From positions 448,001 through 512,000 of the forward strand of contig OY970280.1 in assembly GCA_963715865.1 (NCBI GenBank): a DNA stretch of 64,000 nt, in the 5' to 3' direction. Below are positions 48,173 through 60,726 of this stretch, piece after piece. A program made the translations under genes and the position numbers. Source of the stretch: Candidatus Bathyarchaeota archaeon (lineage in GTDB: Archaea > Thermoproteota > Bathyarchaeia > Bathyarchaeales > Bathycorpusculaceae). Below the pieces are notes generated by a model, which was not told where the DNA came from, made no database searches, and saw only the letters and a program-made list of their open reading frames with translations. The number at the start of each line of letters is the position of its first letter. The stretch's first letter is position 1.

Positions 48173-49513
48173 CTACTGTCCTAATCCTATAGCGACGAAT
48201 TTCATTTTTCTGCTGAAAATTTTAGGATCATAGATCCTTCTTCCGTCAATCAGTACAGGTTGCTTCATGTTTCTTGTGAAATCTTCGGGCATGAGCTTTT
48301 TAAATTCAGGCCATTCTGTCACGATTATGCAACAGTCCGCTTTTTTGAGGCAGCCTATTGCTGAGGTGGCATATTGGATTTTGTTGTTGAAGATGACTTT
48401 TGCAACGGGTATAGCGACTGGGTCGTAAGCGGTTACGTTTGCACCTTCTTCTAAGAGTTGGTTTATTATCGGTATGACTCGAGCTTCTCTCATGTCATCT
48501 GTGTCTGCTTTGAATGCTAAGCCTAGAATTGCTATGCGTTTACCTTCTAGGTTGCCGAGTTGTTCTTTGCAGAATTGGATTGCTTTTAGGGGTTGAGTTT
48601 TGTTTACGTCTTCGACGGCGTCTAGTAGTTTTAGTGGGTAGCCGAGGTTTTTTGAGTATGCCATGAGGGCTTTTACGTCTTTGGGAAAACATGAACCGCC
48701 GTAGCCTAGTCCAGCGTTTAGGAATAGTGGGCCGATTCTTTTGTCTAGTCCCATGGCGGTGGCTACAGTTTTTACGTCTGCGCCGGGGATTTTTTCGCAT
48801 ATGTTGGCGATGGTGTTGATGAAGCTGATTTTTGTGGCGAGTAAGGAGTTGCTGGCGTACTTGATCAGTTCGGCTGTTGAGAGTGTGGTTCTGATTGTTG
48901 GGGGCGCATTTTTGGCGTAGAAGTCTTTGTAAAGGTTTTCTAAGGTGTCACCAGATTTCTTGTCGTATTCGCCTATGACTATGCGGTCGGTGTGCATTGT
49001 GTCTTCGAAGGCGGAGCCTTGGCGTAGGAATTCTGGGCTCATGCATAAACCAAAGTCTGGGCCACATTTCTTTTTTGATTCTTTTTCAAGGATTGGTTTG
49101 ACCAGATCTTGTGTTGTTCCTGGGACAACGGTGCTTTTTATTACTACCACGTGGTATGTACTTTTTTTGTGGAGCGCCTTTCCCATGTCGCGTGATGATG
49201 TTTCTATGAATTGTAGGTCTATGCTGCCGTCTGGTCTGCTGGGGGTTCCCACGGCGTTAAAGGTTAGGTCTGTTTCGAGGACGGCTTTTTCTGTTTGATC
49301 AATTAAACATTTTAGATAGCCATTTTGGACGGTTTTTTCAAGCAGATTTTGAAGGCTGGGTTCGTGAAATGGTGGGATTCCTTGATTTATTTTGGCTGCT
49401 TTTTCGGCGTCATGAGTCGAAGCGATGACGTTGTAGCCTTTGCTGGCAAATCCAACGGCGGTGCACAAGCCTACGTAGCCTATGCCTAAAACAGATATGT
49501 TAGGTTTTTCCAT
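48173..49513 (-). CDS. ugd: UDP-glucose/GDP-mannose dehydrogenase
   Basis: GIGYVG, PEFLRQG, GYGGSCFPKD, GLAFK..TDDMR motifs. Confidence 0.92.
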   Translation of the reverse strand: MEKPNISVLGIGYVGLCTAVGFASKGYNVIASTHDAEKAAKINQGIPPFHEPSLQNLLEKTVQNGYLKCLIDQTEKAVLETDLTFNAVGTPSRPDGSIDLQFIETSSRDMGKALHKKSTYHVVVIKSTVVPGTTQDLVKPILEKESKKKCGPDFGLCMSPEFLRQGSAFEDTMHTDRIVIGEYDKKSGDTLENLYKDFYAKNAPPTIRTTLSTAELIKYASNSLLATKISFINTIANICEKIPGADVKTVATAMGLDKRIGPLFLNAGLGYGGSCFPKDVKALMAYSKNLGYPLKLLDAVEDVNKTQPLKAIQFCKEQLGNLEGKRIAILGLAFKADTDDMREARVIPIINQLLEEGANVTAYDPVAIPVAKVIFNNKIQYATSAIGCLKKADCCIIVTEWPEFKKLMPEDFTRNMKQPVLIDGRRIYDPKIFSRKMKFVAIGLGQ

Positions 49514-49601
49514 GAGTTTGATTCCTCAATTTAGTGTAATGATTCGTTTTCAATCTTCATTGAGTATATATTAGTTATGGCGGAAAGGTTAGAAAAAAAT
49601 T

Positions 49602-49652
49602 TTGATAATTCGTAAAGTTGTTGTTCCGGCTGCAGGTTTGGGAACGCGTTTG
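49602..49652 (+). pseudogene. N-terminal 17 codons of a second galU
   Basis: TTG-IIRKVVVPAAGLGTRL, paralogous to the start of 49977-50849. Confidence 0.8.
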
Positions 49653-49891
49653 TGCTTTTTCTGTTTGGTTAACTAAGCATTTCAGATTGCCTTTTTGTAC
49701 ACTATCCTTAAGCTTTTCTTGGAGCCCAGGCTCATGGAATGGGGGAAAACCCTTGTTAATTTTTGCCGCTTTCTCAGCATCAACATCTGAAGTGATAACA
49801 TTATAGTTTGGCTTGCGAAGCCAACCGCAGTGCATAGGCCTACGTAGCCAGCGCCTATAACCGAGATTTTTGTTTGTTTTTTCAAAGGCAA
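49651..49891 (-). pseudogene. N-terminal fragment of a second ugd (frameshifted, truncated)
   Basis: KISVIGAGYVGLCTAVGFAS / YNVITSDVDAEKAAKINKGFPPFHEPGLQ...NQTEKA parallels the 48173-49513 N-terminus. Confidence 0.85.
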
Positions 49892-49976
49892 ACCCTCAAA
49901 TTAATTGTTAATTTGGATTAAATATTCATATTAAATATATATGGGTTAACATAAGAACAGAGAGGCAAGAGGACGT

Positions 49977-50849
49977 TTGATGATTCGCAAGGTTATAATT
50001 CCTGCTGCAGGCTTGGGAACGCGCTTGTTTCCAGCTACTAAGGAGCAGCCTAAAGAGATGCTTCCAATTTTCTCTAAAACAATGCATGGTGACATGTCAG
50101 TAAAACCCGTGGTGCAGCTGGTTTTTGAGCAACTGTATGATGCGGGTCTCCGAGAATTTTGCTACGTGGTGGGCAGAGGAAAACGAGGCATAGAAGACCA
50201 CTTTACTCCTGACGCAAATTGTGTTAGAAACCTTGAGGGCATGGGCAAAAACGGCCAAGCATCGGACCTTGAGGATTTTTACCAAAAACTCAATACGTCC
50301 ACCATCATGTACGTGAACCAGCCTGAGCCGAAGGGGTTTGGCAACGCGGTTTTGATGGCGCAACCCTTTGTGCAGAACGAGAGTTGCCTTGTTCACGCTG
50401 GAGATAGCTGCATTATATCAAAAGACATGGATTACATCAGAAAGCTGTTGGATGCGTACGAGAGGCTTAATGCGGATGCAGCGTTCATCGCGTTGGAAAT
50501 TGAGAAACCAAAGCAATATGGCATCATCGAAGGAAACGAAGTTGAAAACGGAGTATACAAAGTAAAAACTGTAGTTGAGAAGCCTGAGAAACCTAAGACG
50601 AACTTGGCAGTCATGGCTATGTACGTCTTTCACCCAGTCATCTTTAAGGCGTTAGAAGCAACTAAACCAGGCAAAAACGGGGAAATCCAGTTGACAGACG
50701 CGATACAGAAGCTCATAGATTGGGGATTAAGCGTGTACGCAGTCAAGCTCGACAAAAACTATGCGCACCTGGACATTGGCAGTCCAGAAAGGTACTGGGA
50801 AGCCCTAGAGCTATCGTACAGGCAATTTTGCAGGAGAACAAATGTATGA
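49977..50849 (+). CDS. galU: UTP--glucose-1-phosphate uridylyltransferase family protein
   Basis: PAAGLGTRLFPATK..PKEMLP, QPEPKGFG, EIQLTDA motifs. Confidence 0.88.
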   Translation: MMIRKVIIPAAGLGTRLFPATKEQPKEMLPIFSKTMHGDMSVKPVVQLVFEQLYDAGLREFCYVVGRGKRGIEDHFTPDANCVRNLEGMGKNGQASDLEDFYQKLNTSTIMYVNQPEPKGFGNAVLMAQPFVQNESCLVHAGDSCIISKDMDYIRKLLDAYERLNADAAFIALEIEKPKQYGIIEGNEVENGVYKVKTVVEKPEKPKTNLAVMAMYVFHPVIFKALEATKPGKNGEIQLTDAIQKLIDWGLSVYAVKLDKNYAHLDIGSPERYWEALELSYRQFCRRTNV

Positions 50850-51856
50850 TGGACGAAATAATCCGCGAAGACATCAAAAAAATAAAAAGCCACGTCAAAG
50901 GCGAATTCTTCTCAGAGAAGAAGATGCTGGTGACTGGAGGAGCGGGCTTCATCGGCAGCTGGCTCTGCGATGTTCTGCTTGACTTCGGCGCTCAAGTCAT
51001 GGTTCTTGATGATTTTTCAACAGGAAGAATGAAGAACATCGATCATCTGTTGCAAAACGCGAAGTTTAAGCTGATAAAATCAGATGTCTGTAAGTTTAAG
51101 AGTAAAGAAAAATTCGATATCATTCTTCACATGGCAGGGCATGCTTCTCCGGACGAGTATCAGGTTCACCCAATTGAAACGCTGCAGACTAGCGCTGTTG
51201 GCACCAAGAACATGGCGGAGCTAGCTCGAAAGAACGATGCCGCATTGCTGTTTGCTTCAACTTCAGAAGTTTACGGTGACGCGGAAGTTGTACCTACGCC
51301 TGAAAGTTACTGGGGAAAAGTTAACCCCGTTGGACCTAGGTCGTGTTATGATGAAGGAAAGCGTTTTGCTGAGGCTTTACTTATGGCTTATGTTAAGCAA
51401 TATGGGTTGGATGTTAGAGTTCCGAGAATCTTCAATTCCTATGGTCCGCGTTTGCGAGAGGATGGATTGTATGGTAGGGCTATGTCGCGTTTTATTTTGC
51501 AGGCGCTGTCTAATCAGCCCATAACTGTCTACGGCGATGGAAAGCAGACGCGGTCATTCTGTTACATAACAGACACGGTAACAGCGTTAATGTTGTTGAC
51601 GGCAAGCTCGAAGGCGAAGGGAGAAGTTGTAAACGTAGGCAATACCAGCGAAGTTACTATACTTGAGTTGGCGGAGAAAGTCAAAGAAACAACAAAATGC
51701 AAATCAACCATAGAATTTCACCCACTGCCCAAAGACGACCCGAAAAGGCGCTGCCCAGACACAAACAAGTTGGAGCGGCTTGTAGGGTGGAAACCAACCG
51801 TGAGCTTCGAAGAAGGGCTAAAGAGAACGATTGGGTGGTTTTCGCAAAAGAAGTAG
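50846..51856 (+). CDS. UDP-glucuronate decarboxylase (UXS)-like SDR epimerase/dehydratase
   Basis: TGGAGFIGS, STSEVYG, YWGKVNPVGPRSCYDEGKR, DDPKRRCPD motifs. Confidence 0.9.
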   Translation: MMDEIIREDIKKIKSHVKGEFFSEKKMLVTGGAGFIGSWLCDVLLDFGAQVMVLDDFSTGRMKNIDHLLQNAKFKLIKSDVCKFKSKEKFDIILHMAGHASPDEYQVHPIETLQTSAVGTKNMAELARKNDAALLFASTSEVYGDAEVVPTPESYWGKVNPVGPRSCYDEGKRFAEALLMAYVKQYGLDVRVPRIFNSYGPRLREDGLYGRAMSRFILQALSNQPITVYGDGKQTRSFCYITDTVTALMLLTASSKAKGEVVNVGNTSEVTILELAEKVKETTKCKSTIEFHPLPKDDPKRRCPDTNKLERLVGWKPTVSFEEGLKRTIGWFSQKK

Positions 51857-51965
51857 TCGACACTTAACGTAGGATAAGTAACTTTGGTTAGCAGCTAGAT
51901 AAGTTTGTGTTTGGTGCTGCTATATTTTTATAATAGAATAGGTATTATTATTTTGGTAATACCAA

Positions 51966-52196
51966 ATGGGTAATCAGGTTACTGTTACGGCTAAAATTCC
52001 TGCTGAACTTAAAAAGAAGCTCACCAAGCTGGGTGTAAACGTGAGTGAATTGACGCGGGAAGCTTTGCAAAGGGAAGTGGAACGTTTAGAGAGAGAAAGG
52101 CTTAGGAATCTAGCTGAAGAGGCAAGTAAAATTCTTCAAAAAGTTCCAGCTGAAGAGATCGTTGAAGCTGTGCGGGCGAGCAGGGAGAACCGTTAA
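51966..52196 (+). CDS. vapB: VapB-type RHH antitoxin (cassette 1)
   Basis: VTAKIPAELKKKL..LGVNVSELTREAL; same family as 37126. Confidence 0.82.
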   Translation: MGNQVTVTAKIPAELKKKLTKLGVNVSELTREALQREVERLERERLRNLAEEASKILQKVPAEEIVEAVRASRENR

Positions 52197-52618
52197 TGAA
52201 GCGTCCGTTGCTTTTTGATGCTAGTAGCATCTTTGCGCTTGTTAGAGAACTCGGAGGCGAAGCTCCAAATAAGCTTCTGGAGGGCTCCACCATATCGTTG
52301 GCTTATTATGAGTTGGGCAACGCTTTGTGGAGAGAGTGTTCTTTGCTCAAACACATAAGTCAGGAAGAAGCAGAAAAACTGCTAAGGGCAATGTATGCAA
52401 TTCTTCAAGCAATGGACGTAGTTGGGTTGGAAAATGAAGATGAAGGCACCATAATCTTGGATAAGGCATGCAAATTTAACATTACTTATTATGATTCCGC
52501 GTATGTTGCTGAAGCGTGCAAATCCAAGAAAACCTTAGTAACAGATGATAAAAAACTTGCTAAAGCAGCAGAAAACGCAGGCATAAAAACCTTAACCAGC
52601 AGAGACCTTATTCGATAG
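52196..52618 (+). CDS. vapC: VapC PIN toxin (cassette 1)
   Basis: FDASS, YELGNALW, YYDSAY, VTDD motifs. Confidence 0.88.
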   Translation: MKRPLLFDASSIFALVRELGGEAPNKLLEGSTISLAYYELGNALWRECSLLKHISQEEAEKLLRAMYAILQAMDVVGLENEDEGTIILDKACKFNITYYDSAYVAEACKSKKTLVTDDKKLAKAAENAGIKTLTSRDLIR

Positions 52619-52699
52619 GCATTTTTTATCACATGTTGAACTTATGTTTCTTATTCTAATTGTTTTTTTCTCAAACTGCAATTTTAAAATTCTTTGATA

Positions 52700-52772
52700 G
52701 AGTGGAAGCTAAATGTGAGTTTTGAATGAAGGGCTTAAGAGAACGATTGGGTGGTTTTCACAAAGGAATTAG
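52700..52772 (+). repeat. Copy R2 of the uxs 3' end
   Basis: GTGAGTTTTGAA(T)GAAGGGCTTAAGAGAACGATTGGGTGGTTTTCACAAAGGAATTAG vs 51800-51856. Confidence 0.9.
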
Positions 52773-52882
52773 GCGCCGTTAAGGGGTTATCTTGTTTTCA
52801 GCTGTTCGTTTCCCTGGCTTGTTTTAGTGGTTTATGATTCGTCAGCGTGTAAAAGCGGGCGAGAAGAATTTTGAAGACTGAG

Positions 52883-53278
52883 TTATTTTATGAAAATTAC
52901 GTTTTTTAGTTTTTTGAAGTGTTCGTCGCCAGTCACTACTTCTGCCTTCTTGATTTGTCCAGTGGCGTAGACTATGGAGTCGGCTAATCCCCAGCCGTCG
53001 ATTTCCTTTTTCATTCTGTTCTGTATCTTGGCGGATTCCAGAGCGATGAGTTCGTCTAACGGCACTAAGGCGCTTTTTTCTTTTATGAAGGTTCTCTGCT
53101 TTTCTGCTAGTTCTTGGTTCTCCACTCTGAGGGTTTTAGCGTAGATTTCAGCTAGGCATATTGTCGGGGTAATTTTTTCTTCTTGGCCTTCGATGGTGGG
53201 TTTGACTTTTTCGCCTGTTTTGGTTCCCATGAAGTATTCTATCCACGCGTAGGAATCGATCACATATTTCATAGACAA
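52883..53278 (-). CDS. vapC: VapC PIN toxin (cassette 2)
   Basis: VIDSYAWIEY, AEI, GLADS, VTGD.HF motifs. Confidence 0.88.
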   Translation of the reverse strand: MSMKYVIDSYAWIEYFMGTKTGEKVKPTIEGQEEKITPTICLAEIYAKTLRVENQELAEKQRTFIKEKSALVPLDELIALESAKIQNRMKKEIDGWGLADSIVYATGQIKKAEVVTGDEHFKKLKNVIFIK

Positions 53279-53469
53279 CGGTCCTTGTGGTCGCGGAGGT
53301 CGGTTAGGTCCGTTTGTTTCATAACGCCGAACATGCTGTCTTTTTTGGTGAAGTACTCGATGAGTATTTTGTTTATTTGGTTTGAGATGTTTCTGGCGCC
53401 CGCTTTCTCCTTTAAATTTTGGTAAACGTCGTCTCTTAGCGTTATTGTTGTTTTTTTGGTCGTGAACAT
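53269..53469 (-). CDS. vapB: VapB-type antitoxin (cassette 2); true start ~53469
   Basis: TTITLRDDVYQNLKEKAG...SMFG; overlaps the toxin start. The tracked upstream extension lies in repeat R3. Confidence 0.78.
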   Translation of the reverse strand: MFTTKKTTITLRDDVYQNLKEKAGARNISNQINKILIEYFTKKDSMFGVMKQTDLTDLRDHKDRCL

Positions 53470-53572
53470 CACCATAAACATGTATGTAAATGCCTTCATT
53501 AATAGTTTGCGAGTTGAAGTTGAGGGCAACTTTGATTTCAATTTTCGCATGGCTGGCATGGCGTCTTCTGAT

Positions 53573-53826
53573 GAGAGAAACTGAACGTTGGGAATTATTA
53601 GGAAGTAACTATTTTTGAACTTGCAAAAAAGGTCAAAGAAGTATCCAAATGCAAATCGGCTATAGAGTTTCACCCGTTGTCAAAGCAGTACCCGAAAAGA
53701 CGCTACCCCGACATAAGCAAAATAGAGAAGCTTGTTGGGTGGATGCCGAATGTGAGCTTTGAAGAAGGACTTCGCAGAGTCTCTATTCCCGTCGCAGTTT
53801 TCGAGCGTACTTGCCACAAGAAGTAG
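53573..53826 (+). repeat. Copy R3 of the uxs 3' end (~250 bp, degenerate)
   Basis: Translates NVGNY*EVTIFELAKKVKEVSKCKSAIEFHPL..PKRRYPDISKIEKLVGWMPNVSFEEGL...KK*. Confidence 0.9.
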
Positions 53827-54030
53827 GAAGCATCTAGCACTTAACACGTTAAACATTCAGGGCATTCGAGAAAAAGCGGAAACGCAAATTTTGGGTGTCG
53901 TGTTTTGCTTTTTGGCGGGGAGTTGTTTGTTATCTTTCTTTGATTGTTTCGGTGGAAATGTTGAATATGGTGGTAAAGGGTGGTAAAGTATTAAAGTGTC
54001 TTTTTCTACTTTGTTTATTGGTGTAGTTTT

Positions 54031-54306
54031 GTGACTGTTACTGTAAAAATCGAGGAGGAGAAAAAGGCAAAAGTGGACCGTTTTTTAGCCTCCATTATGC
54101 TTCAGGAAGGTGTGAAGGTAACTCTGCAAGAAGCCATAGGTCTAATGATTGATTATGCGCTTGAAAATGAGGAAGAGGTCATTAAGAAGCTCAGGGAGTT
54201 GCCTGTTCTTGAGGAGGATCCGGCGTGGAAAGCGCTTAAAAATCCGAAGCATTGGGGAGTAAAAGATTCTTCGAAGAGGATAGATGAATTCGTGTACGGT
54301 TGCTGA
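54031..54306 (+). CDS. Putative antitoxin (cassette 3)
   Basis: 91 aa, N-terminal TVTVKI strand, overlaps the downstream PIN gene. Confidence 0.75.
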   Translation: MTVTVKIEEEKKAKVDRFLASIMLQEGVKVTLQEAIGLMIDYALENEEEVIKKLRELPVLEEDPAWKALKNPKHWGVKDSSKRIDEFVYGC

Positions 54307-54719
54307 ATGGCATGGCGGTTTTTGTGGATACTGGAATTTTTGTGGCTATGCACAATGCGGATGACGAGTTTCACTTAAGAAGCAAAGACCTTGTTGAGCG
54401 CGCTTTAAAGGGCGATTTTGGTCGGATATTTACTTCAGACTATGTGGTGGATGAGGCGATAACTACTGCTTTGGTGAGAACGAAGAGGCATGATTTGGCA
54501 TTAGACTTGGGAAGGTACATAATTGAGTCCCCGAGAATCACGAAGGTATGGGTTGGGGAAGATGCTTTTAAAAAGGCATGGGGAAAATTTAGGGTTTTTA
54601 AAGATAAGCCCTTAAGCTTTACAGATTGTACCTCAATAGCACTCGTTGAGATGAGTGGGATTAAGCAGATTATGAGTTTTGACTGCGGCTTTGACGGATT
54701 AGTCCCCAGAATTTGCTAG
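54300..54719 (+). CDS. vapC: VapC PIN toxin (cassette 3)
   Basis: FVDTG, YVVDE, SFTDCTS, SFD motifs. Confidence 0.88.
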   Translation: MLNGMAVFVDTGIFVAMHNADDEFHLRSKDLVERALKGDFGRIFTSDYVVDEAITTALVRTKRHDLALDLGRYIIESPRITKVWVGEDAFKKAWGKFRVFKDKPLSFTDCTSIALVEMSGIKQIMSFDCGFDGLVPRIC

Positions 54720-54727
54720 TTAGCCTT

Positions 54728-54922
54728 ATAGAACTGGCTCTAAGAAAAATAAAAGAATCCCACAGTGCAAATCCACCAGAGCTTCATCCGTTGTCTTGAG
54801 ACGACCCGAAAAGACGCTGCCCAGACACAAGCAAACTAGAAAGGATTGTTGGGTGGAAGCCGAACGTGAGCTTTGAAGAAGGGTTGAAGAGGACTGTAGC
54901 TTGGTTCTCAAGAAAGCCGTAA
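54728..54922 (+). repeat. Copy R4 of the uxs 3' end (~195 bp)
   Basis: Translates ..LHPLS*DDPKRRCPDTSKLERIVGWKPNVSFEEGLKRTVAWFSRKP*. Confidence 0.92.
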
Positions 54923-55378
54923 AGAACGGAAAACGGTCCCTTTTTATTTTTTGCAAGTTTTGAAGCTAATTCTTCAAAAACTTCTTATTTTTCAATAGGA
55001 AGGGGCTTGAAATGGGCTTGGAATTGCTAAAGCTTGAAGATAACGGCTTGCAGTGTTGGAAGTTTGTGAAGGAATTAGGTGTGAAACATGCGCTTACTTG
55101 TCATTATTTGCACAATTTTGATGCGTTTGTGCGCGATAAATGGCGTTTTGGGAAGCTTCCAAGAAAATGTTAAGGGTGACGTGATGCAGAAAACAATTCA
55201 TTCAGAAGACATGTAAACGCTAGCTTGTTTAAGGCTTAGGCTGCTGAAAAAATTATTGAAAAACGATAGGGGCACTCAGCGTAATCCGATTTCGTCAAAG
55301 CCCTCTATTGCATATTCCCAGCGTTTACATTCGAGATTCTCAAGCATTTTTTATGTTAAGCAAAGCATCATTATGAGT

Positions 55379-56596
55379 CTAGTGGGGCAGGAAGAAAGCA
55401 CCTATGCCTGGAGGTGGAGTTCGTTTTAGTTGCCAAGCAGCCAACGCTAAAGCTACAACGCAGTCATCGTGGTAGCCTTCAGGCGCCCCATACTGCACAT
55501 TTCCACTTGGCGTAGTCTTGTAACCGTACAGCTTAAGCTCATTGATCAACTCGGGAACCTGTGGTAACGTCAGCTGCTGATTCTCAATCATTATGCTCAA
55601 GTTCTCGATAAGGTCTTTTTTCGTTGCGTTCGTGAACTTGTAACCTTCAACACGGATGTTTTCACGGTGGAGCTCATCGCATATTGGATCACCAACACCT
55701 GTACTATCGATAAGCAAGCGAGCATCATATCGCTGGGCAAGTTGAACTATGCGTTTACGCTGCAAAACCCAGTCTAACTCGCTAAACCTGTCGAAAGCGC
55801 AGAGGTGCCCGTCCATATCTAAAACGCAAAGCACTGTGAAGTCTTCAAGCTTAGCAAGGTCAGCGCCCATAACGTACTGTTTATGTTGTTCAAAGGTTTG
55901 AAAGCTGCCTTTGACTATGCGGTCAACGCCTCGGAAAACACTGCCAACATCCTCAAGAAACTCAGCGAGAACCTCTTGACGGTAAGCCAGCTCAGGCATA
56001 TCCCTGGCGAAAGCCGCAATCTCTGCTGGATCCAAATATGGGTTGCTGGCGCTTGGGAAACTCCAGCTCTTATAATCAGTCTGCGACGGGTCTTGCCCGC
56101 GAGTCCAGAGCCGAAAATACCAGTTATGCCCTCTTGGCGTGCCCGTGAAAAAAGCTATTCCTTTCTCATCCATAAGCGCTGGTCTAAGCGCAAGAGTCCA
56201 AGCTTCCTCAGCAATCTGTGCACCCTCATCAACCCAGAGAACTTTTACGCCTTGGCTCCTAAGTGAATCAGGGTTATCTGCGCTCTTAAACCAGATATTG
56301 CGGTTACCCTTGAGGATAACATGGCGGTCAGCGCGATGAATTTCCTCTATCAGTTCAGCTGGGCAAAAATTGAAGAACTCACTCCATTGCCGCTGAGTAT
56401 GCCAATAAGTGGGAGCTACAGCGAAGCCTACTATGTTTGGGTCTTGTTTCCACATTTGCCTTATGAATTCGTTGGCGCCTGCAACAGTTTTACCCCAGCG
56501 ACGCCCACAGTTAAGCACCCTAAACCTTGCTGCGTGATAGTGGAATTCAACTTGCCCAGAGTGAGGCTTGTACCTAATCAGTATTCTTTTTTGCAA
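55379..56596 (-). CDS. Viral terminase large subunit
   Basis: Walker A GRRWGKT, Walker B LWVDEGA, coupling motif GTP, nuclease GADLA and HDD motifs. Confidence 0.92.
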   Translation of the reverse strand: MQKRILIRYKPHSGQVEFHYHAARFRVLNCGRRWGKTVAGANEFIRQMWKQDPNIVGFAVAPTYWHTQRQWSEFFNFCPAELIEEIHRADRHVILKGNRNIWFKSADNPDSLRSQGVKVLWVDEGAQIAEEAWTLALRPALMDEKGIAFFTGTPRGHNWYFRLWTRGQDPSQTDYKSWSFPSASNPYLDPAEIAAFARDMPELAYRQEVLAEFLEDVGSVFRGVDRIVKGSFQTFEQHKQYVMGADLAKLEDFTVLCVLDMDGHLCAFDRFSELDWVLQRKRIVQLAQRYDARLLIDSTGVGDPICDELHRENIRVEGYKFTNATKKDLIENLSIMIENQQLTLPQVPELINELKLYGYKTTPSGNVQYGAPEGYHDDCVVALALAAWQLKRTPPPGIGAFFLPH

Positions 56597-56979
56597 ACCT
56601 TAGGGTCCTCCCATTTGATGACAGTTTCTTCAGGCTCAGCGGACTTTTGAGATTTAGCGCCTGTTAACTCAGCGAGGTCAAAGTTTATCTGCCGCAGAAG
56701 ATTCAAAGCAGTTATCCGAGCCCGGTCAGACTTAGCCTGCATATACGCGACTACAGCTTTCCGATACAGCTGCTCATGCCTATTGCGAACTTTAAGCAGA
56801 GCATCCTTCGTCTCTTGCAACAGAGGCTGCCAGCTCCTTCGAGTCTCAAAATCCAAGTAAACTGCACGCTGAGTAACTCCATACTTAACACTTAATTCCT
56901 TCACAATCTCAGAAGGCTGAAAACCGTTTCCTTCAAGCCTCAACAGTTCCAAGCGTCTTTCAAGCGTCTTCTCGTTCAT
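56578..56979 (-). CDS. Putative terminase small subunit (HTH)
   Basis: N-terminal HTH-like SEIVKELSVKYGVTQRAVY; overlaps the terL start. Confidence 0.6.
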   Translation of the reverse strand: MNEKTLERRLELLRLEGNGFQPSEIVKELSVKYGVTQRAVYLDFETRRSWQPLLQETKDALLKVRNRHEQLYRKAVVAYMQAKSDRARITALNLLRQINFDLAELTGAKSQKSAEPEETVIKWEDPKVCKKEY

Positions 56980-56998
56980 AATTCAGCACCTTTTTCTC

Positions 56999-58097
56999 TT
57001 ACTCGGATGAATAGCCTCCGCATGTTCGTTTCTGAGGAATATATTCAAGGGAAACGGTAAGACGCCGCTTACTGCTAGACTTTAGCAATTCCCGATTTAT
57101 CCGAGTGTCCTCTCGCCCATGGCTGCCATGGCCAACACGCTTAACTCTCCAGTTACCCAGATTTCCGCGGACGAGCTGAGGATTGCTCGTAACCAGATAG
57201 AAGGGCAAATTCACCTGAGAAGTGTAAAGCTCAGCGATAAAATTTAGTAGCCTTTTGCCGATACCTATGCCCTGGTAATCAGGCAAGACAACTAAGCGGC
57301 TGACGCGATAATAATTTGCCCTCATACGAATGTGCACTACAGCCATGAATGCTACCGGCTTATCCTGATTGACCGCCGCGTAGCATCGGGCGGTTGAAGG
57401 AAGTGAACCGCTTAGATAGTGATAGTGCCGAAACATTTTCCAAAGGGAAGCGCCGCACCGATAAACTTTGAGTTCAACGGGCGGCCGAGCTCTTTTTTTC
57501 GGTCAAACTCCATCGTATCAGTGCAGAAGACCCAGTCTGGATCCAACCAATCAACTAACGTCATAATGGCAGGTTACGGCAATGAATTTCTTGTCTTTCT
57601 GGCGCCGAATTGCCTTGCTGATTGCGTAAGAAGCGATCTTTGCAACTTCTCGGTCCACAACTGACGTGAACTCATCGAAAACGATAACTTTCTGAGAAAG
57701 ACAGAGAGCACGAGCGATATCAACGCGCATCTTCTCCCCTTGGCTAAGGCAGCTGTAAGCTTTGAGCCAGTCTGGAGGACTAGCAAAGCCAACGCTGCAG
57801 AGCAGTCGTGTTATTTCGCTTGTTTCTATAGTCTTCAGGAAAATCATCCAGTATGCATTGGTGCGTGTACTCGAAGCCAGTGAAGTAGGAGTCTGGGAAG
57901 AGCTGTTTGGCTATGCTTGATTTGCCTGAGCCGCTGCGCCCCACGATTATGCCGATCTGCCAGTCGTCGCCTTCTATTGGCAGCGAGCCTTTGAAACGCT
58001 TCTGCAACTTAACATCGTTTAGCGTGAAGCTGCCCACGACGCTTTGGGCTCGGAAACTGTCTGGTTCACTCCAACTGTTTACAAAATCAAAATCCAA
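56999..58097 (-). CDS. ABC-type ATPase-GNAT fusion, split over four frames (shifts at ~57830, ~57556, ~57495)
   Basis: GRSGSGKS, LSQGEK, VFDEFTS, then VDWLDPDWVF, then WKMFRHYHYL..VSRLVVLPDYQGIGIG. Confidence 0.75.
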
Positions 58098-58110
58098 ACT
58101 GTCAAGCCTC

Positions 58111-58680
58111 CTAAAGATTCAGGACTCTTACCTTGTAGCCTTCAGCCTTGAGTTTCTCAAAGAAGCACTGCTGTTCCGCCTCATCCTTGCATTCTATAAT
58201 GAGCTCGTAGCTGCCAGGTATGATGCTTGAGCCTTCATGTTCACCACCAAGGTCTTCGGGAAGCTTCTCGCCAACAGACTCTAACAAGGCTTTGAGACAG
58301 TCTTTTTCGCCAGCCTCTATAATGCGCATGTACTCAGCGCCGTCAAGCTCCTTGTTATGCTTGCCCTTGAGCTTGTTCAGAATTTGCCGAAGCATCCTTC
58401 TGTCGACGTCAGAAACAGGCAGCCGAAGAACTGGAGCAAAAAACTCGCCATGCCCCTTGCAGACTTCCGCCCGTTGCTCGCCATCAGCAAAAACGCCATC
58501 CTTGTTAGTTATGATAGGGTAAGTCCAGCCGTACTTCTGAAGGCTAAGCCAAACCTGATCCTTCTGCTTTATCGTCATCTTATTAGGGTTATTTTCGTCG
58601 CTTCTTAAAAGCCGAAGATCTTCAATGAGGGACAGATAAGCGTCAGGAACCTTAATTGTTGTTTTCTTTTCAGCCAACAT
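58111..58680 (-). CDS. ParB/Srx-domain protein (viral type)
   Basis: NNPN, YGWTYPII, DGEQR motifs. Confidence 0.75.
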   Translation of the reverse strand: MLAEKKTTIKVPDAYLSLIEDLRLLRSDENNPNKMTIKQKDQVWLSLQKYGWTYPIITNKDGVFADGEQRAEVCKGHGEFFAPVLRLPVSDVDRRMLRQILNKLKGKHNKELDGAEYMRIIEAGEKDCLKALLESVGEKLPEDLGGEHEGSSIIPGSYELIIECKDEAEQQCFFEKLKAEGYKVRVLNL

Positions 58681-58917
58681 GACACCCTACCGTTATCTTC
58701 TTTGTTGTTCTTCTCTGGTCTTGAAAACTTTTTCAAGCAAGTCTTTTTGCGGTATTCTGATTTCAATCGTGTTGTTACACATTTTTTTATCATCGCAAAA
58801 TATATATTAGCACCTTGCTGTTATATATCTTTAAGATACATAGCTAAATGATGCGGTATATATCTGAAAGCGCCGAATAGCTGTATATCGTAAAAAACTT
58901 GCAAGAGGGGACTATAG

Positions 58918-59727
58918 ATGCCAAAAAGAATAACAAATCCACTGAGAGCAGGATTGCCTTCAAAAATCTACTATTTAGCGTACAGTGGCCCTATAACTGG
59001 TTATGAAATAGCACAAAGGATTTACGGAATAAAACCTCCAGCCATTCCGCCAACAGCTAAAACTTACGAATGGATCAAGAAGCTAAAAGATCAAAGAATA
59101 CTTTCAGAAACAGAACATGGATGTATGTCCAATGTTGAGCCATTGCTGAATGAAATTGAATTGACTCTTAAAAAGAAAGATAGCTCTGATTTTTCAAACT
59201 TTGAAAAGCATATGACGGGAAAGATTCTAGGCTGTAGGGAGTTTAGGGCTTTTATAGGTAGATTTAATCTCGAAAGTTTCTCGCAAGATCAAGATTTTGA
59301 TGCTGCGTTCAGAATGATGGATCTTCTAAGCTTTCAAGCTATCCGCATCTTTTCATCAGGTGTCTCTAAATACGAGGCTAAGACTCAAAAAGAATTTGAT
59401 AAATTGTTTGATGCGGCTATTACGTTGATTCATAATCCCGAATTTCAAAAGGAGTTACAAGAAGTAAACTTACTTAAAGATATAAAGGATCCCAAGCAAT
59501 TAAGCGAAACAAAGAAGCTAATAAGTAAAATGAAAAATTACCCTTTATTTGACATCGACAACTTAGGCATCTTCCTAGCAGTTCCCAACCGAACCCTAAA
59601 AAAACTGTGCAAACTCAACAAATATTACGAAATGATAGAATCCTTAAGCAGTAACCCGCTATATTTTAAGACATTCCAAGCATTTGCTCAAAAACTATAC
59701 ATCCAAAGACGAGAAAAGACTGACTGA
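58918..59727 (+). CDS. Hypothetical protein with possible N-terminal winged helix
   Basis: 269 aa; PITGYEIAQRIY resembles a wHTH; divergent from the parB-ter operon. Confidence 0.6.
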   Translation: MPKRITNPLRAGLPSKIYYLAYSGPITGYEIAQRIYGIKPPAIPPTAKTYEWIKKLKDQRILSETEHGCMSNVEPLLNEIELTLKKKDSSDFSNFEKHMTGKILGCREFRAFIGRFNLESFSQDQDFDAAFRMMDLLSFQAIRIFSSGVSKYEAKTQKEFDKLFDAAITLIHNPEFQKELQEVNLLKDIKDPKQLSETKKLISKMKNYPLFDIDNLGIFLAVPNRTLKKLCKLNKYYEMIESLSSNPLYFKTFQAFAQKLYIQRREKTD

Positions 59728-59754
59728 TTTTCTATCTCTATAGCAATGATTTAG
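59497..59754 (+). repeat. Left copy of a ~255 bp direct repeat (3' end of gene 58918-59727)
   Basis: Aligns with 60350-60603. Confidence 0.88.
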
Positions 59755-59774
59755 TCGATTCTCTTCAATCAGAG

Positions 59775-60035
59775 CTATTTCATTTTGTAGACGTTTTTAC
59801 GATGACCAACTGCCAAGAGGATAATTTTCCCGCCTTCGATTCGGTATAGGACGCGGTACTTTCCAACTCTTGTTGAAAATACGCCTTTGAATTCTCCATG
59901 CAACGGTTTATCTACTTTAGGGTTGTTTTCCCATGAATAGACTTCTTTGATTATTTGAACCTGAGCTTTCTGGTCAAGAGTTCTGATTTGTTTCGAAAAA
60001 CGATGAGTCAGCTCAACTGTGAACTTGTGTTTCAA
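59775..60035 (-). CDS. relE: RelE/ParE-family toxin
   Basis: KPLHGEFKGVFSTRVGKYRVLY..VGHRKNVY. Confidence 0.88.
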   Translation of the reverse strand: MKHKFTVELTHRFSKQIRTLDQKAQVQIIKEVYSWENNPKVDKPLHGEFKGVFSTRVGKYRVLYRIEGGKIILLAVGHRKNVYKMK

Positions 60036-60219
60036 GGTGCAAATCCCGCACTAGCTCATCTAGCGTCATGGTTTTTCCCTGTTTAGCTTCGCGCAAAGAA
60101 GCCCGTAGGTCTTTTACCAATTTCTTGTCCTGCATGACTTCAAGCGTCTCGAGCAGTTCTTCCATCAGGCTTGCTGCTTTCGTGAGCAGTTCTTTTTCGT
60201 CGGTTGTTAAGAGAGCCAT
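60013..60219 (-). CDS. Cognate antitoxin
   Basis: ELLETLEVMQDKKLVKDLRASLREAKQGK; overlaps the toxin. Confidence 0.8.
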   Translation of the reverse strand: MALLTTDEKELLTKAASLMEELLETLEVMQDKKLVKDLRASLREAKQGKTMTLDELVRDLHLETQVHS

Positions 60220-60349
60220 AATTGTATGCGCCGTTGTTTAAGATATGAGCGATGGGGTTCTTATCTTTTGCTTTCCGGTAGGGAAAAATTGGGGAGAGCT
60301 TTAAAACTAAGCCTGAACGCTCGCATTGTCTGCTTCTTTGAATAAAACC

Positions 60350-60603
60350 AAAATTAAGAAAAAAGAAGCTAATAAGTGAAATGAGAAATGACCCTTTACT
60401 TTTCATCGGAAACTTGGGCATCTTCCTCGCAGTTCCCACCGAACCCTAAAAAAACTGCAAACTCAGCAAATATTACGAGTTTATAGCATACTTAATCGAT
60501 AGATCGCTAGATTTTTTTACATTCCAAGCATTCGCTCGAAAAACTATACACCCAAAGAGGAGAAAAGACTGACCGATTTTCTATCTCTAAAGCAATGATT
60601 TAG
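60350..60603 (+). repeat. Right, degenerate copy of the ~255 bp direct repeat
   Basis: e.g. GGCATCTTCCTCGCAGTTCCCA-CCGAACCCTAAAAAAACTG and GAGAAAAGACTGACCGATTTTCTATCTCTA. Confidence 0.88.
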
Positions 60604-60660
60604 ACGCCGTTGCTTTAACTATTGAAAAAACTTCGACCCCTCGTTTATAAGGGAATGAAG

Positions 60661-60726
60661 AAACCGAATGTGAGTTTTGAGGAAGGGCTAAAGAGAACGG
60701 TAACGTGGTTTTCACAAAAAAGCTAA
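60661..60726 (+). repeat. Copy R5 of the uxs 3' end
   Basis: KPNVSFEEGLKRTVTWFSQKS*. Confidence 0.92.

Follow-up and report, generated by a model that had tools for sequence, protein, structure and literature searches.

In archaea, integration of mobile elements in the 3′-distal part of protein-coding genes and the re-use of attachment (att) sites have been described (PMC6563490). In streptococci, integrase-less remnants flanked by att sites, the cis-mobilizable elements (CIMEs), accrete in tandem at a gene 3′ end (PMC5704250). Tycheposon islands are punctuated by partial copies of their target (bioRxiv 10.1101/2020.12.28.424599), and integrons have been reported in archaeal metagenome-assembled genomes (MAGs; bioRxiv 10.1101/2022.02.06.479319). 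Here we describe an array of four cassettes, most of them toxin-antitoxin (TA) operons, that stands behind a sugar-nucleotide gene, uxs, in a Bathyarchaeia archaeon from a peat bog. The stretch analyzed, hereafter the window, comprises 64,000 nt (positions 448001–512000) of a single-contig 2.35-Mb genome (GCA_963715865.1, OY970280.1). Coordinates are window positions unless marked as own genome. R1–R5 are the five uxs 3′ ends and c1–c4 are cassettes 1–4; G-numbers denote genomes of relatives, and L-numbers (some with a G:C contig label) denote compared stretches or contigs, including the Joint Genome Institute (JGI) peat contigs L184–L186.

The last 75–280 nt of uxs are repeated four times downstream, all on the plus strand, as found by a repeat search and by tblastn with the uxs protein. 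The copies meet at a 17-nt core, GTGAGCTTTGAAGAAGG; the sequences to its left and right are called the left and right arms. With two or fewer mismatches the core has four copies in the 2.35-Mb genome, and 4/4 lie in the array (0.35 expected). The target gene and its repeated ends are:

50846–51856, plus strand: uxs, the target gene, a UXS-like extended short-chain dehydrogenase/reductase (SDR) gene (Pfam GDP_Man_Dehyd, Epimerase)
51800–51816, plus strand: core copy 1, GTGAGCTTCGAAGAAGG, within intact uxs
52694–52768, plus strand: R2, uxs amino acids 314–337 (search match at 52694–52766); short left arm, core with a 1-nt insertion, cassette 2 right arm (GWFSQRN*)
53575–53781, plus strand: R3, uxs amino acids 262–330 (tblastn E = 2e-25)
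53752–53768, plus strand: core copy 3, in R3; the cassette 3 right arm is absent through a 95-nt deletion
54719–54922, plus strand: R4, uxs amino acids 272–337 (tblastn E = 3e-22, match at 54719–54916); core at 54866–54882 and cassette 4 right arm (AWFSRKP*)
60661–60726, plus strand: R5, uxs amino acids 318–337 (tblastn E = 2e-5, match at 60661–60720); core GTGAGTTTTGAGGAAGG and right arm (TWFSQKS*) at 60670–60726

A preliminary description, made from the letters of the window, had already placed four plus-strand recurrences of the uxs end near these positions, and both searches recover them. It had also read the C-terminal codons at the five ends as QKK*, QRN*, HKK*, RKP* and QKS*. All five readings are correct, but HKK* at R3 is not a uxs end: the 95-nt deletion took the right arm, and the frame continues into cassette 3. 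The right arm of cassette 3 is still present in G045 contig C92, in G003 and in metagenomes. The right arm of R5 is of the type that terminates the intact uxs gene of G045.

As the alignments show, the mobile unit consists of a core, a right arm, cargo, a left arm and the next core. The right arm (about 40–65 nt) encodes L-K-R-T-x-x-W-F-x-x-K and a stop in frame with uxs, i.e., a substitute uxs C-terminus, and the left arm is 0 to about 400 nt of uxs sequence from upstream of the core. The cassette next to uxs therefore provides the working end of the gene; here the final 40 nt of uxs, 3′ of the core, derive from cassette 1. The elements of the array are bounded by direct att-like repeats that contain the 3′ end of the target gene. 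The four cassettes are:

51817–52715, plus strand: cassette 1, with right arm, VapB-like antitoxin (51966–52196), PIN toxin (52196–52618) and left arm of about 20 nt (Pfam, NCBIfam)
52734–53751, plus strand: cassette 2, with right arm, VapC (52883–53278, minus strand), VapB (53269–53475, minus strand) and left arm of about 190 nt (53575–53751) (Pfam PIN, VAPB_antitox)
53769–54865, plus strand: cassette 3, with native-type downstream sequence, 91-aa putative antitoxin (54031–54306), PIN toxin (54300–54719) and left arm of about 145 nt (54722–54865) (Pfam PIN)
54883–60669, no strand assigned: cassette 4, a decayed head-tailed provirus of 5.8 kb (Pfam, PHROGs)

Each interval holds one cargo unit, as had been proposed: three are of vapBC type and the fourth is the decayed provirus with relBE (Pfam, PHROGs, NCBIfam). 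The layout in 3/4 units is that of a type II VapBC system, a PIN protein with a small upstream antitoxin gene, the two overlapping by 1–10 nt. The PIN matches have E-values of 8e-4, 4e-14 and 5e-12, and two of the three antitoxins have a VapB-like/VAPB_antitox match. The three PIN proteins, which the preliminary description called dissimilar, have no significant mutual similarity by BLASTP. Searches of all cargo open reading frames (ORFs) against Pfam, PHROGs and NCBIfam found no integration or transfer genes. Just past the window end, 64008–64590 (genome 512008–512590; L040 1015–1590) is an inverted copy of part of cassette 2, with few mismatches over about 560 nt. It holds the vapC start, the whole of vapB and most of the left arm, and stops about 40 nt before the core; its inverted uxs piece (64008–64178), a fifth one, was overlooked in the preliminary description. 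The copy is a recent internal duplication giving a second vapB, and it could permit inversion of the intervening 11 kb.

The two arms of a fragment have different affinities. For 14 copies, identity was taken separately on the two sides of the core (170 nt to the left, 60 nt to the right). Left arms cluster by the cargo on their left (cassette 2, 74–89% across four genomes; cassette 3, 93%), and right arms cluster by the cargo on their right (cassette 2, 82–95%; cX, 79–84%). In 4/4 genomes the left arm of the fragment that follows cassette 2 is c2-type; its right arm is cX-type in G018 and "type B" in the other three. Each tested fragment is a hybrid of two adjacent cassettes joined at the core. 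The fragments are therefore not each one contiguous leftover of a displaced uxs, and we rejected as the sole process homology-facilitated illegitimate insertion, in which every fragment is the remnant of a displaced gene with a contiguous old uxs end. Such insertion may account for the first origin of left arms. Recombination at the core has been part of the history of this locus.

The same cassettes are found in relatives. Cassette 1 (51812–52756) is 96.6% identical to positions 1433–2376 of L161 of G045, and cassette 3 (53774–54916) is 95.5% identical to positions 2453–3583 of L161. Cassette 2 (52702–53771) has 93% identity to G018, 90% to G003 and 95.6% to G045, with different neighbors each time and breaks at the cores. 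In G018 it stands directly behind intact uxs, so its first 67 nt are the working gene end there; in G003 and G045 it lies between fragments, and in the window between R2 and R3. The order in G045 is uxs, a 190-nt empty unit (c0), c1, c3 and host genes, with junctions at the cores, and in the window uxs-c1-c2-c3-c4; cassettes 2 and 4 are absent at that place in G045. The JGI contigs (97.5% identical) are collinear with the window through uxs-c1-c2-c3 and part from it exactly at 54882, where the R4 core ends and where G045 diverges too. All of the cassette-level breaks examined in pairwise and three-way alignments lie at the core or just after it. The cassettes are 90–97% identical between genomes whose uxs and upstream genes are only 75–83% identical, so the cassettes moved horizontally.

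The preliminary description had proposed that the uxs 3′ end is a re-used landing site on which modules of different origin are stacked, that the copies might share a crossover boundary, and that relatives might differ in the number and order of cassettes. These proposals hold up well: cassettes are shared with relatives and have different neighbors there, the aligned R copies share the core as their boundary, and cassette number and order vary among G045, G018, G003 and the JGI contigs.

An array of this kind could be an artefact in which strain variants 3′ of uxs were collapsed or concatenated, as the assembly is metagenome-derived and the locus is strain-variable. However, independent MAGs (G045, G018, G003), three JGI peat contigs and contigs from other runs have these junctions too, and a 2189-nt contig from another public run spans 52663–54842. 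The uxs fragment copies are only 60–85% identical to one another, so an assembler could not have joined on them. We consider an artefact extremely improbable.

The intervals could also be the remains of full-size, integrase-bearing viruses or plasmids of which a TA pair and att scars are left, the small cassettes themselves being immobile. TA pairs resist loss, and cassette 4 is visibly a decayed provirus. Minimal cassettes with identical ends are found, however, in four species, at an identity well above that of their surroundings and with differing neighbors and order, and independent decay would leave different deletion ends. Decay alone is thus unlikely in our view, even though streptococcal CIMEs originate in this way (PMC5704250).

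Arrays are spread through the genus. Among 120 genomes, a uxs orthologue is present in about 65 and additional uxs 3′ fragments in about 19, with a maximum of nine in G003. The cargo of other arrays includes VapBC, RelBE and AbiE-like pairs, AAA ATPases, an aspartyl protease pair, a STAND NTPase with TPR proteins, and viral genes. The first cassette behind the G022 uxs gene (L029, G022:C4, 2433–7559) is 6 kb long, with genes for two large TPR proteins and a NTPase of STAND type; it looks like an antiviral STAND (Avs-like) defense module. In uxs orthologues that lack arrays, 7/9 have more than three mismatches to the canonical core. Mismatch in these orthologues is expected anyway, because the gene end 3′ of the core comes from the first cassette.

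The reading that we favor, with about even confidence, is that the array would be a tandem stack of non-autonomous integrative cassettes whose attachment site lies in the last 60 nt of uxs, with site-specific recombination provided in trans. Cassettes would enter and leave as circles through site-specific recombination at the core, and the recombinase would most likely be a tyrosine integrase of a virus or other element with the same target site. TA pairs would predominate by being selfish and hard to lose. Homologous recombination between uxs pieces would additionally move, delete and duplicate cassettes and whole arrays. In cassettes 1 and 4 only about 15–20 nt of homology lie left of the core, which is the size of the usual att identity block; this short block, together with the in-frame C-terminus and stop in the right arms, is how integrase-borne elements are typically built. 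One virus related to cassette 4 has a gene for a tyrosine integrase.

Several results weigh against a site-specific recombinase acting at the core. In six genomes, none of the arrays examined was found to have an integrase or serine recombinase within it or nearby, and this holds for the apparently complete provirus of G094 as well. The search used PF00589 and PF00239 in the own genome, PF00589 in five relatives, Pfam on 27 cargo ORFs, and tblastn with the integrase of a related virus. The preliminary description saw no integrase, and indeed there is no tyrosine or serine recombinase within 50 kb, the nearest PF00589 match in the genome being 52 kb beyond the window. No free attP form, in which one cassette would have its two arms joined at the core, was seen in the contigs, which cannot show circles. 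Most cassettes bear uxs-homologous left arms, which a true attP does not need. The core encodes a conserved peptide, and its conservation does not clearly exceed that of the roughly 25 nt on its left; homologous recombination is demonstrably active at the uxs locus.

Some candidate signals were examined and set aside. Special conservation of the core in pseudogene fragments was dropped, as with ascertainment made without the core the signal was not clearly above the adjacent 25 nt. Dyad symmetry around the core is limited to CTTCGAAG in R1 and is accounted for by the S-F-E-E codons. One loose end, in which a c3-type right arm follows the R4 core, was considered as a circle junction and is an alternative array (contigs L184–L186). 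Joints such as 51720>54818 in contigs from public runs are not deletions; they are third alleles that align to two homologous fragments. One X11 contig links the tail of cassette 1 to the R5 core, a weak link with only 34 nt on one side. Parts of cassette 4 are uncovered in the contigs of four peat runs, which is no evidence of their absence.

The activity of homologous recombination is best seen in contigs L184 and L186, compared over 49756–54882, where the c1–c3 array stands behind two different uxs alleles. In L184, c1–c3 are 97–100% identical to the window, but the 5′ part of uxs and the genes upstream of it are only 68–86% identical. The switch, at which identity jumps from about 75% to >95%, lies within uxs near 51250, roughly 550 nt upstream of the core. 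In L186, only 51456–51856 is divergent (88–93%). Mosaic tracts of this sort are typical of homologous recombination or gene conversion.

It is worth asking whether homologous recombination alone made the array, which we hold to be less likely than the favored reading but a serious rival to it. The uxs pieces would then be portable homology for RadA-type loop-out, duplication and swapping between strains, with no dedicated recombinase, and crossovers would fall at the core because it is the sole near-identical stretch between neighboring fragments. The uxs-homologous left arms of variable length agree with this, as do the negative recombinase searches at the arrays and the near-identical 560-nt inverted part of cassette 2 (64020–64590), whose ends are away from the core. 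The difficulty is the first entry of each distinct cassette, which needs more than 17–35 nt of imperfect homology, while c1 and c4 offer about 15–20 nt left of the core. It also counts against this alternative that all of the cassette-level junctions examined map to a single short site, and that the same cargo family is found elsewhere between tRNA 3′ remnants. The preliminary description had named a trans-acting recombinase or homology-anchored recombination as the mechanism, and the evidence still leaves both.

The features of cassette 4, the decayed provirus, are:

54976–55098, inverted: terS fragment
55379–56596, minus strand: terL
56578–56979, minus strand: terS
56999–58097, minus strand: ABC/GNAT gene, broken into three ORFs
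58111–58680, minus strand: ParB-like gene
58918–59727, plus strand: winged-helix gene
59508–60606, no strand assigned: nested insertion with relBE, i.e., RelE (59775–60035, minus strand) and its antitoxin (60013–60219, minus strand)

On either side of the relBE pair lies one copy of a directly duplicated 250-nt stretch, the 3′ end of the winged-helix gene (59508–59757 and 60359–60606, 78–93% identical). The terL-terS-ABC/GNAT-ParB-like block (55380–58690) recurs at 71–86% nucleotide identity in several IMG/VR proviruses and in genomes of about 20 Bathyarchaeia, where its site is almost never uxs, and G094 has an intact ABC-GNAT homologue of 523 aa. Viruses use the uxs site, as in cassette 4, in a G094 provirus that is about 26 kb long and apparently complete, and in L041, where terL is next to a full uxs. 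The G094 provirus (L163, L181; G094:C3, about 270000–296000) has no recognizable integrase, and no uxs right arm remains at its far end. We searched 120 terL-bearing loci for a uxs fragment that could be a viral attP, and only L041 had one. At the uxs-proximal edge of cassette 4, 54976–55098 and 56872–56994 form a 123-nt inverted repeat (71% complementary), a piece of the terS 5′ end in opposite orientation. The repeat marks a rearrangement within the provirus remnant.

The same design is found at other targets. Three sites of the own genome have a vapBC pair or an ATPase cassette between two copies of the 3′ end of the adjacent gene, the copies being 82–85% identical. These sites, and examples of tRNA remnants, are (own-genome coordinates):

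1725971/1727132 (to 1727311): bracketed cassette
1756315/1757501 (to 1757734): bracketed cassette
1670753/1673360 (to 1673634): bracketed cassette
1731489–1740367: tRNA-Ala
1010492–1011265 and 1903945–1905406: tRNA-Val
2009497–2009537: tRNA-Gly remnant

About 30 tRNA 3′-end remnant sites exist in this genome, several of them 0.7–1.4 kb downstream of the parent tRNA with an integrase-free interval. One such interval contains a single 327-aa gene, and a tRNA-Gly remnant stands between VapBC and HEPN-MNT. A tRNA 3′ remnant is the classical footprint of an integrase (PMC6563490). Relatives of the cassette 2 VapC (70–86% identity) occur in 77 other metagenome contigs, 0/77 at uxs. VapC loci with enough flanking sequence number 39, two of them at uxs, and 13/39 have bracketing direct repeats. 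The brackets are tRNA-Leu 3′ remnants, without an integrase, in 4/13; others are 3′ ends of protein-coding genes, including a ugd-like gene. The arrangement is thus not specific to uxs or to glycan loci, and extends to tRNA genes and other genes in this genome and in metagenomes. The suggestion in the preliminary description that TA modules would stabilize a surface-glycan locus is speculative.

More speculatively, Bathyarchaeia might have a general integron-like system in which gene and tRNA 3′ ends are portable sites for single-operon TA and defense cassettes. The recombinase would never be in the cassette, being an unrecognized enzyme family or a host function, and any gene end could grow a stack while staying intact. 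We regard a system of this generality as rather improbable.

The target gene closes an operon-like run in the order ugd, NTP-transferase gene and extended-SDR gene, which ends at 51856. Its assignment to the extended SDR family is certain (Pfam GDP_Man_Dehyd and Epimerase). In NCBIfam the best matches are to other sugar-nucleotide dehydratases, all under the (equivalog) cut-offs, and we therefore take the name UXS from the YDEGKR motif and the ugd and NTP-transferase neighbors. Directly upstream of intact ugd (48173–49513), at 49575–49891 on the minus strand, are frameshifted pieces of a second UDP-glucose dehydrogenase gene, from its 5′ end. They are a gene-start remnant on the opposite side of the conserved block from the array.

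Bathyarchaeia are abundant and barely cultivated, and to our knowledge almost nothing is known of their gene exchange. This locus is a well-defined case in which TA and defense operons cross species as units of about 1 kb, with ends that can be read to within a few bases, and in which cassettes accumulate where the host gene keeps working. If a trans-acting recombinase is responsible, the array would be a gene-capture platform analogous to integrons, in a domain with few known integrons, and the core would serve directly as a substrate in the search for the enzyme. Should homologous recombination be the only process, duplicated gene ends would have become portable homology arms for selfish cassettes. 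Either way, this route may have supplied much of what is a very large TA complement in these genomes.

Among described systems, the array shares several features with integrative elements and CIMEs that accrete in tandem, such as ICESt1/ICESt3 at the fda 3′ end of Streptococcus thermophilus (PMC5704250). The target is the 3′ end of a protein-coding gene, the att repeats include the gene end, integrase and transfer genes are missing, and newcomers stack beside old elements. The host here is an archaeon, however, and the units are single-operon TA cassettes of 0.2–1.2 kb where CIMEs are decayed integrative and conjugative elements (ICEs) of many kb. No integrase-bearing element is a neighbor, and the cassettes are common to several species and reordered across them. 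Integrated elements surveyed in archaea likewise target gene 3′ ends (14/68 there), supply a new stop and re-use sites in tandem. Those elements are at least 5 kb, mostly with an integrase or casposase, and their att repeats are short and near-identical, whereas the array has long diverged arms, no recombinase and no integrase gene of its own at the att site. The tycheposon islands of Prochlorococcus share the partial copies of the target 3′ end, the displacement of older elements outward by newcomers, the degenerate remnants and the defense and accessory cargo. They differ in that the target is a tRNA gene, intact ones carry a tyrosine recombinase and the host is a bacterium.

The array also resembles chromosomal integrons, with an ordered series of promoter-poor, single-operon, TA-rich cassettes, one insertion site by a fixed gene, and reshuffling. 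A search of the whole genome with PF00589 found no integron IntI beside the array, the nearest match lying 52 kb beyond the window, and there was none near the arrays of five relatives. An inverted-repeat scan found no recurrent palindrome at the cassette boundaries that would suggest attC, although no attC covariance model was run. Unlike in integrons, the cassettes are bounded by uxs 3′ fragments that join at a core lying in coding sequence, and the array is not of the integron family. The prophages e14 and phage 21 in icd of Escherichia coli work in a related manner, with a diverged substitute 3′ end that keeps the gene intact and the original end displaced downstream. In each case a single integrase-bearing prophage occupies the site, and not an array of small cassettes.

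The statement in the preliminary description that this arrangement had not been described was too strong, as its ingredients have been (PMC6563490; PMC5704250; bioRxiv 10.1101/2020.12.28.424599). We found no paper describing such cassette stacks in Bathyarchaeia, within an incomplete coverage of the literature. The array is a further form of what is seen in CIME accretion, tycheposon islands and archaeal elements at gene 3′ ends. The unusual features are scale and regularity, with one-operon units of about 1 kb, no nearby recombinase, cassettes exchanged between species, and a design that is repeated at many targets within a single genome.

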